A stretch of DNA of 64,000 bases from the sequence record PZ509022.1. One strand, 5' to 3'. Origin of the DNA: a phage. The notes beneath the pieces were generated by a model, which had not been told where the DNA came from, did not search any database, and saw only the letters and a list, made by a program, of their open reading frames with translations. Made by a program: the position numbers and the translations under genes. Numbering within the stretch: the first letter of the stretch is position 1; each line of letters starts with the position of its first letter. This document shows, piece by piece, positions 44,202 to 45,799 of this stretch.

Positions 44202-44277
44202 TGGTCGAGGCAGTAGGGATCGAACCTACGACCTAGGACTTAGAAGGTCCTTGCTCTTCCTTCTGAGCTATGCCCCG
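44202..44277 (-). tRNA. tRNA-Arg (anticodon UCU)
   Basis: hand-folded cloverleaf; AC stem AGGAC/GTCCT, loop CTTCTAA; CCA encoded. Confidence 0.8.
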
Positions 44278-44281
44278 TAAT

Positions 44282-44357
44282 TGGGGTGACCGATGGGAGT
44301 CGAACCCATGACTACGAGAATCACAATCTCGAGTTCTACCAACTGAACTACGGCCAC
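44282..44357 (-). tRNA. tRNA-His (anticodon GUG)
   Basis: hand-folded; loop TTGTGAT; T-loop TTCGACT; discriminator C. Confidence 0.7.
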
Positions 44358-44471
44358 ATTAATACCTACTCCAACAATCAAGATGTCTTCACACGAAATT
44401 AAGAGAAGAGTGATCAGTTCAACCCCGATAATCGCGTCAAGTAGATATTAATGTGACAATTGTCACAAATT

Positions 44472-44546
44472 TGGCGGACGTGATAGGATTCGAACCTATA
44501 ACCAATCGCTTAACAGGCGATCGCTCTGCCATTGAGCTACACATCC
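44472..44546 (-). tRNA. tRNA-Asn (anticodon GUU)
   Basis: hand-folded; AC stem ATCGC/GCGAT, loop CTGTTAA. Confidence 0.75.
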
Positions 44547-44550
44547 AAAT

Positions 44551-44637
44551 TGGTGGGGAGTGATGGAGTCGAACCACCCGAGTCGCAATGACAATGGATT
44601 TACAGTCCACACCGCTACCTCTACGGGATAACTCCCC
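44551..44637 (-). tRNA. tRNA-Tyr (anticodon GUA), class II with long variable arm
   Basis: hand-folded; loop CTGTAAA; 15-nt variable arm. Confidence 0.7.
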
Positions 44638-44650
44638 TTAATTCTTAATT

Positions 44651-44725
44651 TGGTGGCCCTGGGTGGAATTGAACCACCATCTGGCGATTATGAGTCGCTT
44701 GCTTGAACCTTCCAGCTACAGGGCC
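44651..44725 (-). tRNA. tRNA with CAU anticodon (Ile2 or Met)
   Basis: hand-folded; loop CTCATAA; order after Ser-Thr matches the T4 Ile position. Confidence 0.7.
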
Positions 44726-44726
44726 T

Positions 44727-44802
44727 TGGTGCTGATTGACGGAATCGAACCGCCGACCTTCTCATTACAAGTGAGTTGCTCTACCTACTGAGCTAAATCA
44801 GC
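44727..44802 (-). tRNA. tRNA-Thr (anticodon UGU)
   Basis: hand-folded; loop CTTGTAA. Confidence 0.75.
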
Positions 44803-44807
44803 AAAAC

Positions 44808-44897
44808 TGGCGGAGGCGATAGGATTTGAACCTATGAGTCGCCGGAGCGACTGCCGGTTTTCAAGACCGGTGCATTAAACCACTCTGCCACGCCTCC
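44808..44897 (-). tRNA. tRNA-Ser (anticodon UGA), class II
   Basis: hand-folded; AC stem CCGGT/ACCGG, loop CTTGAAA, long variable arm. Confidence 0.8.
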
Positions 44898-44900
44898 AAA

Positions 44901-44908
44901 TATTTATA
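44901..44908 (-). promoter_or_regulatory. possible late promoter (rc TATAAATA) between segB and tRNA-Ser
   Basis: plus tatttata; only 4 nt from tRNA 5' end, so uncertain. Confidence 0.25.
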
Positions 44909-45554
44909 TATTGTTAATTTGATTTAGAATTCTTTTTGCTTGAGTATGACTTACACCAATATGCTTAGCATATTTAGATAATTCACCACGCTTAGAAAAA
45001 TCATATAATTTAGAAATTTCTATTCTTCTTTTTCTTTCATCCGCCGAAACTTTTGCTTCGTTTGCTTTTGCTATTTTACGTTTAGCTTCTTGAGAGTGAG
45101 TTTTACCAGCAAAGCCATTCTTCATTAATCCATTTGAAGACCATCCTTTTAATTTTCCGTTAGAATGTGCCTTTTTAACACCCAATGAAATTAATTCGCG
45201 TTGCTGGTCTGTCATAGGATAATTATTTATATGATCCCATCCACCTTCACCACCAAGTTTTAAATTATACACATCTGGTCTATTTAAAAACTCTTCCGTG
45301 ACAATATTTTTCTCGGCTTCAAGCATAGATTCTTTATCATCAAAATACTCTAATATTTCTTTAGAAAAATTTTCTATACCATACTTATCTTGGGCTCTTT
45401 TTAATAATTTACCAGAACCCATATATCCATCATCTAAATTTTCGGTAGAATGCACACCAATATAAATTTTATTATTAATTTTATTTGTTATTTTATAAAG
45501 ATAAAAATGCATATCAGTCCCTAATAAAGAACTGAGCGTCTCACGACGAGTCAT
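44904..45554 (-). CDS. segB: GIY-YIG homing endonuclease SegB (216 aa) inside the tRNA island
   Basis: FYLYKITNKINNKIYIGVH GIY-YIG motif; NUMOD3-like GKTHSQEAKRKIAKA. Confidence 0.85.
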   Translation of the reverse strand: MTRRETLSSLLGTDMHFYLYKITNKINNKIYIGVHSTENLDDGYMGSGKLLKRAQDKYGIENFSKEILEYFDDKESMLEAEKNIVTEEFLNRPDVYNLKLGGEGGWDHINNYPMTDQQRELISLGVKKAHSNGKLKGWSSNGLMKNGFAGKTHSQEAKRKIAKANEAKVSADERKRRIEISKLYDFSKRGELSKYAKHIGVSHTQAKRILNQINNI

Positions 45555-45558
45555 AAAT

Positions 45559-45632
45559 TGGAGCGGATAATGAGAATCGAACTCACATCATCAGATTGGA
45601 AGTCTGAGGTAATGCCATTATACGATATCCGC
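45559..45632 (-). tRNA. tRNA-Gly (anticodon UCC)
   Basis: hand-folded; AC stem TCAGA/TCTGA, loop CTTCCAA. Confidence 0.8.
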
Positions 45633-45637
45633 AAATT

Positions 45638-45724
45638 TGGTGCGAGAAGTGGGACTCGAACCCACAAGGAAATCATTCCGCAGCATTTTAAGTGCTGTGC
45701 CTTTACCAATTTGACCATTCTCGC
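45638..45724 (-). tRNA. tRNA-Leu (anticodon UAA), class II
   Basis: hand-folded; AC stem CAGCA/TGCTG, loop CTTAAAA. Confidence 0.8.
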
Positions 45725-45725
45725 G

Positions 45726-45799
45726 CTGGGAATAAAGGACTCGAACCTTTGCATCCTGGAATCAAAATCCAGTGCCTTACCAACTTGGCTAATTCCCAA
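45726..45799 (-). tRNA. tRNA-Gln (anticodon UUG), CCA apparently not encoded
   Basis: hand-folded; acceptor TGGGAAT/ATTCCCA, AC stem CTGGA/TCCAG, loop TTTTGAT. Confidence 0.75.

Follow-up and report, generated by a model that had tools for sequence, protein, structure and literature searches.

A cluster of tRNA genes in a 64,000-nucleotide stretch of phage DNA (sequence record PZ509022.1) raises the question of how close relatives of bacteriophage T4 came to carry different sets of tRNAs. This cluster, the tRNA island, codes for the tRNAs for Tyr, Asn and His, lacks tRNA-Pro and is interrupted by an open reading frame (ORF) for a putative endonuclease. The whole 64-kb stretch is called the window below, and all positions refer to it unless stated otherwise. 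An initial annotation had described the island as expanded and rearranged with respect to that of T4 and split by the T4 gene segB, and had put forward codon usage, compensation for cleavage of host tRNAs and homing as causes. The comparison with related phages shows that the island is very probably a common and already annotated allele of the Tequatrovirus tRNA operon (the RB18/AR1/KAW1E185 type), which has been remodelled by a homing-endonuclease cassette occupying the slot of tRNA-Pro.

Composition of the tRNA island

Ten tRNA genes were found in the window by ARAGORN, all on the minus strand between positions 44202 and 45798. In the direction of transcription their order is Gln(UUG), Leu(UAA), Gly(UCC), a 651-bp ORF, Ser(UGA), Thr(UGU), a tRNA with the anticodon CAU, Tyr(GUA), Asn(GUU), a 114-nt gap, His(GUG) and Arg(UCU). 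Independently of ARAGORN, all ten exceed the gathering score of the Rfam family RF00005. Nine of them have 59-74 bits (E-values of 1e-11 to 1e-15); tRNA-Tyr, which has a weak D-stem, is marginal with 30.2 bits compared to a cut-off of 29, and its gene is flagged 'pseudo' by tRNAscan-SE in the record of phage EC121. The two methods show that the anticodons, order and coordinates of the initial annotation are correct, far beyond what chance would give. ARAGORN, which had been proposed as a check, supported the tRNAs for Tyr, Asn and His.

The tRNA genes of T-even phages are confined to this single cluster. Neither ARAGORN nor Rfam detected a tRNA-Pro, and a BLAST search with tRNA-Pro found no remnant of it; the absence, which had been noticed earlier, covers the 64-kb window only and not the rest of the genome. 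The T4 annotation lists eight tRNAs including tRNA-Pro, and Tyr, Asn and His, which are absent from T4, are indeed extras here. Thus the island is expanded when measured against T4, but not against the widespread 11-tRNA island of phages ECO07P3, Aplg8 and EC121.

The CAU tRNA, for which either Ile2 or Met had been suggested, aligns from end to end with E. coli genes to which PGAP gives the name tRNA-Ile (a median of two per genome). It has the GGCCCT...AGGGCCA acceptor stem and the anticodon stem-loop AGCGACTCATAATCGCCAG in common with E. coli tRNA-Ile(CAU), so that by its sequence it is of the Ile2 (lysidine, AUA-reading) type and not a tRNA-Met.

The region matches 1155 phage records, nearly all of them from T4-like phages of enterobacteria. 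Over the wider 20 kb the identity to many Tequatrovirus genomes is 96-97%, and the flanks and shared tRNAs have 95-99% nucleotide identity with T4, T2 and the RB phages. The island has the organization of the T-even tRNA operon: it is one same-strand cluster between the e.x genes and the trna.2-4/ip/57B genes, it contains the orthologous Gln, Leu, Gly, Ser and Thr genes common to T-even phages, and it is followed on its 3' side by rnaD, rnaC and an intrinsic terminator.

Replacement of tRNA-Pro by an endonuclease cassette

The loss of tRNA-Pro can be seen by comparison with phage ECO07P3. The window and ECO07P3 are 99.2% identical over positions 43487-44898 and 98.2% identical over positions 45554-46817. 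Between these flanks the window has 655 bp (44899-45553), whereas ECO07P3 has 80 bp that consist of a spacer and tRNA-Pro. The swap is clean, and no degenerate tRNA-Pro was found inside or near the 655-bp cassette. The gene for tRNA-Pro is thus missing because its place is taken by the endonuclease cassette; as judged from this alignment, it was lost by physical replacement and not by adaptation to codon usage. The uninterrupted Gly-Pro-Ser junction is present in 460 records, and both states of the locus are common.

The chimeric SegB-like endonuclease

The ORF between tRNA-Gly and tRNA-Ser has 216 codons and contains a GIY-YIG domain (Pfam PF01541, 26.8 bits compared to a cut-off of 22.6). 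Its residues 15-110 are nearly identical to SegB of T4 and T6. From Met15 onwards the sequence MHFYLYKITNKINNKIYIGVH is identical to that of T6 SegB and includes Tyr17 and Gly19, both of which are essential in the T6 enzyme (PMC13096335). At the DNA level, positions 45224-45567 are 97.7% identical to the 5' half and the 5' untranslated region (UTR) of T6 segB. The upstream ATG at 45554 has no Shine-Dalgarno sequence. Because the 5' region, in which this ATG lies, is homologous to the T6 segB 5'UTR, translation probably starts at Met15 and yields a protein of 202 residues. A hairpin covering the ribosome-binding site, as is found just upstream of the Met15 codon, is the arrangement described for the translational repression of T4 segB (PMC2330249, PMC2988022).

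The C-terminal half of the protein is different. The BLASTP alignment with T4 SegB ends at about residue 131 with nothing beyond it, and the C-terminal 106 residues, which contain a NUMOD3/helix-turn-helix-like domain, have no similarity to T4 SegB. About 53 phage records have this half with 100% conservation, and its identity to endonuclease genes of Klebsiella phages of the genus Jiaodavirus is about 70%. The position is different as well. In T4 segB is inserted between tRNA-Ile and tRNA-Arg (PMC2988022, Table 1), and in both T4 and T6 it lies just upstream of tRNA-Arg, whereas the ORF of the window is between Gly and Ser. The identification of the ORF as segB therefore does not hold: the catalytic half alone is shared, and two features that define a segB orthologue, its position and its C-terminal half, are different here. 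On sequence grounds, the protein is a natural domain-swap relative of SegB that resides at another site. The broader suggestion, that exchange in the island is driven by a homing endonuclease, stands, but the enzyme is not the segB orthologue to which it had been attributed. The label 'segD', which the ORF carries in AR1-type records, was also dropped; the catalytic half has about 98% DNA identity to segB, and T4 SegD was not compared directly.

A SegB recognition site in tRNA-Asn

T4 SegB cuts the tRNA-Asn gene of phage T2L, and the T2L block is replaced in crosses of T4 with T2L (PMC2330249). The preferred site of the enzyme is a 27-bp sequence at the 3' end of T2L tRNA-Asn (PMC2330249). The tRNA-Asn gene of the window is identical to that of T2 and holds this site, GGTTCGAATCCTATCACGTCCGCCAAA, exactly. 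It differs from the corresponding site in the tRNA-Ser gene of the window at positions 6, 16, 18, 26 and 27, and the same five positional differences are named in PMC2330249. The exact preferred site makes the island a predicted recipient of T4/T6-type segB.

Alleles of the operon in T-even phages

The arrangement of the operon in several phages is given in Table 1. The annotations of RB18 and KAW1E185 show the same ten tRNAs in the same order and, between Gly and Ser, the same endonuclease ORF. There are 41 records that cover at least 80% of the 2.8-kb layout, and the Tyr-Asn-leader-His-Arg block is present in 187. The ten-tRNA layout is thus already known and has been annotated in the databases many times over.

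Table 1. Arrangement of the tRNA operon in T-even phages, in the direction of transcription. The chimeric endonuclease gene is denoted seg*; the leader is the RNA that precedes tRNA-His
Phage	Arrangement
ECO07P3, Aplg8, EC121	Gln Leu Gly Pro Ser Thr Ile2 Tyr Asn leader His Arg; uninterrupted by an ORF
Window, RB18, KAW1E185	11-tRNA layout with seg* instead of Pro
RB68, RB51	As the window, without leader and His
PBM-1	As the window, with an HNH endonuclease instead of Gln
T2	Pro kept; 133-residue ORF instead of Thr; without leader and His
T6	Gln Leu Gly, Pro/Thr hybrid, T4-type Ile, Tyr, segB, T4-type Arg
T4	Gln Leu Gly Pro Ser Thr Ile segB Arg

The tRNAs of the window have two kinds of relatives. 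Those for Leu, Gly, Ser and Thr have 96-100% identity to their T4 counterparts, and Gln differs from T4 in its anticodon arm only. The CAU tRNA and Arg(UCU) have the anticodons of T4 tRNAs but not their bodies (47 of 75 and 49 of 76 positions identical) and are not T4 orthologues. The CAU, Tyr, Asn and Arg tRNAs are instead those of T2 (Table 2) and correspond to the T2-type set of PMC2330249, where Brok-Volchanskaya et al. (2008) described 'four extra or isoacceptor tRNA genes' of T2L, RB1 and RB3. Compared to the T6 gene, tRNA-Tyr has two differences, one in the anticodon stem and one in the T stem.

In every lineage an endonuclease gene, or a relic of one, displaces one tRNA or a few. The 133-residue ORF in the Thr slot of T2 is homologous to the C-terminal domain of seg* (33% identity, E-value 8e-16) and has no catalytic domain. 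SegB homologues are enriched next to tRNAs (PMC13096335), and the displacement of single tRNAs fits both this enrichment and the recognition of T-arm sequences by SegB.

The T2 ORF lies at 2721-3122 and the PBM-1 HNH gene at 3183-3791 of the compared loci. The PBM-1 HNH endonuclease, in the Gln slot, has a C-terminal helix-turn-helix stretch similar to that of seg*. What is called tRNA-Thr in T6 (2643-2717 of the T6 locus) combines the 5' acceptor strand of tRNA-Pro with the body of tRNA-Thr, the two being joined at the shared sequence GTAGCTCAGT, and its acceptor stem would not pair. The hybrid looks like the scar of a deletion of Pro-Ser-Thr by recombination between tRNA genes. The tRNA-Gln of the window differs from that of T4, T2 and T6 by eight substitutions, all in the anticodon arm, with the stem kept. 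Both variants of this arm occur among close relatives, and their distribution does not follow that of the endonuclease cassette. The swap of the arm resembles the pattern of nuclease evasion that has been proposed for phage tRNAs (PMC10264068).

The leader RNA and tRNA-His

The gene for tRNA-His and about 100 nt upstream of it are present or absent together, as illustrated by RB68. This leader-His block recurs in the genera Karamvirus, Jiaodavirus and Gelderlandvirus, so that at least four genera of Tevenvirinae have it, and the leader is always directly 5' of tRNA-His. The leader is found in 356 records and is almost never annotated. The 114-nt gap between Asn and His in the window contains nothing that ARAGORN recognizes as a decayed tRNA or Rfam as a known RNA family (E-values up to 1).

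An alignment of eight distinct copies gives a fold in which a long closing helix encloses three inner hairpins. In this fold 97.8% of the alignment cells are paired, compared to 37-51% after sliding of the partner strand. Compensatory changes on both sides are seen in six pairs, compared to at most one when slid, and the covariation score was reached by none of 500 shuffles. The outer five pairs of the closing helix can form with nucleotides +1 to +5 of tRNA-His. Across the four genera tRNA-His is nearly invariant, and the leader shows compensatory changes. A scan of IMG/VR for exact 15-mers of the leader core gave 52 loci, of which only four were true copies.

The tRNA-His has the canonical GUG anticodon and the C73 discriminator, but the nucleotide at position -1 is T and not G. 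The G at -1 is a near-universal identity element for the histidyl-tRNA synthetase, is encoded in the genome in bacteria and pairs with C73 (PMC4338351, PMC10100707). E. coli hisR has this G. Eight other phage tRNA-His genes have T at -1, and the same nucleotide occurs in every T4-like and T5 tRNA-His gene examined, including those of PEi20, Aes012 and T5. In the literature that was searched, nothing was found on phage tRNA-His without G-1 or on RNAIII of T5. The latter is a 106-nt RNA annotated in T5 as 'RNAIII, stable RNA with unknown functions', which has the same position and architecture as the leader. Like the leader, it has a long closing helix and three inner hairpins and ends at the 5' end of a tRNA-His with T-1, but the similarity in sequence is weak. 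A covariance model of the leader, which included 7 nt of tRNA-His, had its best match in a 14-kb T5 region at RNAIII, with only 20.5 bits and a rough E-value of 0.006. The homology of the two RNAs, to the extent that the model can tell, is suggestive.

The leader and tRNA-His could together be a functional unit of an unusual kind and not just an ordinary tRNA with a spacer. Such a unit might be an atypical route of 5' processing or identity that retains U-1, a processed stable RNA that has a function of its own, or a decoy tRNA that is poorly charged. We regard this as a doubtful proposition. The leader RNA and the missing G-1 are the only parts of the island that might hold something new.

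Origin of the allele

The parent state of the operon would have been the uninterrupted series Gln-Leu-Gly-Pro-Ser-Thr-Ile2-Tyr-Asn-leader-His-Arg-ORF116-rnaD-rnaC-terminator, in which ORF116 is a 116-codon frame. A free-standing GIY-YIG cassette would then have replaced the 80 bp that hold tRNA-Pro. Its endonuclease appears to consist of the 5'UTR and catalytic half of T4/T6 segB joined to a different, presumably DNA-binding, C-terminal half. During mixed infection the enzyme may cut cassette-free alleles in or near tRNA-Pro, and recombinational repair would copy the cassette in, thereby removing the target. The T2-type block Ile2-Tyr-Asn-His-Arg-ORF116 has been kept, and the site in tRNA-Asn would make the island a recipient of T4/T6 segB homing. 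The differences between the tRNA sets of T-even phages would thus have arisen mainly by endonuclease-driven gene conversion and by recombination between tRNA genes, and not by codon tuning. The tRNAs are presumably co-transcribed and processed by host enzymes and would top up the supply for A/T-rich codons, and at least tRNA-Tyr may also act as a buffer when defence nucleases of the host deplete tRNA-Tyr.

Adaptation to codon usage, by which Tyr, Asn and His would have been gained and Pro dropped because the codon and amino-acid usage of the phage differs from that of T4 and from the supply of the host, was assessed with 66 long ORFs of the window and 46 E. coli K-12 genes. Compared to the E. 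coli sample, which is only 50 kb, there is an enrichment of 1.25-fold to 7-fold in the codons that the classical phage tRNAs read (AGA 7.1-fold, AUA 3.7-fold, UCA 3.0-fold, GGA 2.2-fold, ACA 2.0-fold and UUA 1.9-fold). Tyr (1.58-fold) and Asn (1.49-fold) are the most over-used amino acids after Lys. However, Lys itself, at 2.0-fold, has no phage tRNA-Lys, His is under-used (0.85-fold), and CCA and CCU are over-used 1.4-fold and 1.8-fold although tRNA-Pro is missing. The demand suggested in the initial annotation thus fits Tyr and Asn, but neither His nor the loss of Pro. Furthermore, phages whose flanks are 98-99% identical differ by having Pro or the cassette and, in the case of RB68, by His. 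The differences between alleles therefore cannot be put down to codon usage, which is also improbable as a cause of the present set, but codon demand may help to keep Tyr and Asn. Another possibility is that Tyr, Asn and His, three of the four tRNAs of the GUN-anticodon, queuosine family, form a dedicated counter-defence set that replaces host tRNAs cut by anticodon or variable-loop nucleases. Colicin E5 cuts exactly the tRNAs for Tyr, His, Asn and Asp, and related phage genera also carry tRNA-Asp. The confinement of the allelic swap in tRNA-Gln to the anticodon arm, the evasion pattern of PMC10264068, also agrees with such a set. For Tyr the support is published. The Septu system EcB88 cleaves tRNA-Tyr, and T6 tRNA-Tyr rescues infection when it is overexpressed or amplified, the amplification being brought about by SegB (PMC13096335). 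A T6 mutant without the tRNA region is more sensitive to Septu, and T4, which has no tRNA-Tyr, cannot escape (PMC13096335). Retron-Eco7 also depletes tRNA-Tyr, and in this case T5 tRNA-Tyr rescues infection (PMC11555353). By analogy with the near-identical T6 gene (85 of 87 positions), the tRNA-Tyr of the window can be inferred to counter nucleases of this kind. Compensation for host tRNA cleavage, as proposed earlier, is therefore backed by publications for Tyr but not beyond it: no experiment was found that links defence systems to tRNA-Asn or tRNA-His in these phages. In addition, the protection by tRNA-Tyr is an effect of dosage rather than of resistance, and the charging of a tRNA-His without the G-1 identity element is uncertain. 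A dedicated set is conceivable, but we would not expect it to be the explanation.

It is very unlikely that some of the extra tRNAs are decaying pseudogenes that hitch-hike with mobile DNA. The low Rfam score of tRNA-Tyr, its 'pseudo' flag in EC121 and the lack of G-1 in tRNA-His would agree with decay. However, tRNA-Tyr is identical at 85 or more of its 87 positions across T2, T6 and the window, the T6 copy is expressed and functional (PMC13096335), and the near-invariance of tRNA-His together with the compensatory changes in its leader indicates purifying selection. Remodelling of a common allele by the endonuclease cassette is the preferred explanation, and several points weigh against it. 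No single-nucleotide polymorphisms linked to the homing-endonuclease gene were found in the flanking Gly and Ser genes, so that there is no co-conversion tract pointing to a cut site, and the target of the chimeric enzyme is deduced from its position only. The direction of change, insertion into an 11-tRNA allele rather than loss of the cassette and regain of Pro, follows from parsimony. As to the buffering role of tRNA-Tyr, the T6 tRNA-Tyr is itself cut by Septu and gave protection only when overexpressed or amplified (PMC13096335); a single copy may give little protection. The literature search found no defence role for tRNA-Asn or tRNA-His in these phages.

Other features of the operon

The features of the operon are listed in Table 2. 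The rnaC and rnaD genes, which are annotated in RB68 and T4, are 93.9% identical to those of T4. ORF116, between tRNA-Arg and rnaD, is present in T2 and RB-type phages but not in T4 or T6, and is part of the block that T4 SegB homing removes; it has no match in Pfam. Upstream of the island there are two minus-strand ORFs similar to trna.2 and trna.3, at 45896-46183 and 46186-46590, also without a Pfam match. RB18, KAW1E185 and T2 have an extra 516-bp ORF between Gln and trna.2, which the window and T4 lack. A scan for sigma-70 promoters gave 12 sites compared to 11.2 expected from shuffled sequence, and no promoter was called. A possible MotA-box/-10 pair just upstream of tRNA-Gln, read by eye, was not relied on; its -10 element abuts the 5' end of the tRNA.

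Table 2. Positions of the features of the tRNA operon in the window and their identity to known genes
Feature	Position	Strand	Remarks
tRNA-Gln(UUG)	45725..45798	-	T4 gene except for the anticodon arm; loop UUUUGAU, CUUUGAC in T4
tRNA-Leu(UAA)	45638..45724	-	87/87 to T4
tRNA-Gly(UCC)	45559..45632	-	73/74 to T4
Homing-endonuclease cassette, 655 bp	44899..45553	-	Replaces 80 bp (spacer and tRNA-Pro) of sister phages
SegB-like GIY-YIG ORF, 202 residues from Met15 (MHFYLYK...)	44904..45512	-	
Hairpin over the Shine-Dalgarno sequence	45514..45535	-	Just 5' of the Met15 ATG
tRNA-Ser(UGA)	44808..44897	-	90/90 to T2
tRNA-Thr(UGU)	44727..44802	-	73/76 to T4
tRNA-Ile2 type (CAU)	44651..44725	-	75/75 to T2; 47/75 to T4 tRNA-Ile
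tRNA-Tyr(GUA), long variable arm	44551..44637	-	85/87 to T6; 86/87 to T2
tRNA-Asn(GUU)	44472..44546	-	75/75 to T2
Preferred T4 SegB site, 27 bp (GGTTCGAATCCTATCACGTCCGCCAAA)	44470..44496	-	3' end of tRNA-Asn
Conserved structured leader RNA	44358..44471	-	Directly 5' of tRNA-His; helix and hairpins at about 44358-44461
tRNA-His(GUG), C73, T at -1	44282..44357	-	
tRNA-Arg(UCU), T2 type	44202..44277	-	74/76 to T2; 49/76 to T4
ORF116 (116 residues, phrog_3355)	43835..44185	-	Function unknown
rnaD (stable species 2 RNA) and rnaC (stable species 1 RNA)	43574..43837	-	rnaD about 43718-43837; rnaC about 43574-43712
Intrinsic terminator, end of the tRNA operon	43500..43523	-	

Comparison with other T-even phages

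The layout as such adds little to what is known, since many GenBank records already have it annotated. The extra tRNAs of the T2 type, and the homing of SegB into them, were published in 2008, and the evasion of defence by T-even tRNA-Tyr and SegB in 2026. How the island relates to that of T4 is accounted for by the published biology of homing endonucleases, to which the sequence comparison adds two refinements, namely the SegB chimera and the physical replacement of tRNA-Pro. The window endonuclease, as a natural domain swap of SegB, could be used for studying how the choice of target is re-programmed. T4 is a poor reference for the island. Its eight-tRNA set is one of several endonuclease-remodelled derivatives, and the 11-tRNA allele without ORFs is a better baseline. 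Lineages differ by an endonuclease gene or relic in a single-tRNA slot - that of Pro here, of Thr in T2, of Gln in PBM-1 and of Asn in T6 - and the tRNA repertoires of T-even phages have therefore been shaped largely by the traffic of selfish DNA.

T4 and the window have in common the orthologous Gln, Leu, Gly, Ser and Thr genes, rnaC and rnaD, the flanking genes (95-98% nucleotide identity) and a GIY-YIG endonuclease gene within the operon, with a hairpin that sequesters its ribosome-binding site. Unlike the window, T4 has Pro, lacks Tyr, Asn and His, and has Ile and Arg genes with unrelated bodies; T4 segB, whose C-terminal half is different, is located between Ile and Arg. T6 resembles the window in its tRNA-Tyr and in the catalytic half and 5'UTR of the endonuclease, which are about 98% identical. 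However, T6 segB lies directly 3' of Tyr, in the Asn slot, and forms with it an amplifiable unit of 718 bp (Chihara et al. 2026, PMC13096335), whereas the endonuclease of the window, with another C-terminal domain, occupies the Pro slot three genes away from Tyr. Ser, Asn and His are also absent from T6. The phages T2L, RB1, RB3, RB18, AR1 and KAW1E185 share with the window the position and strand of the operon, ORF116, rnaD, rnaC and the terminator. T2 differs in that Pro is kept, Thr is replaced by an ORF and the leader-His module is absent. The RB18-type layout is indistinguishable from the island of the window.

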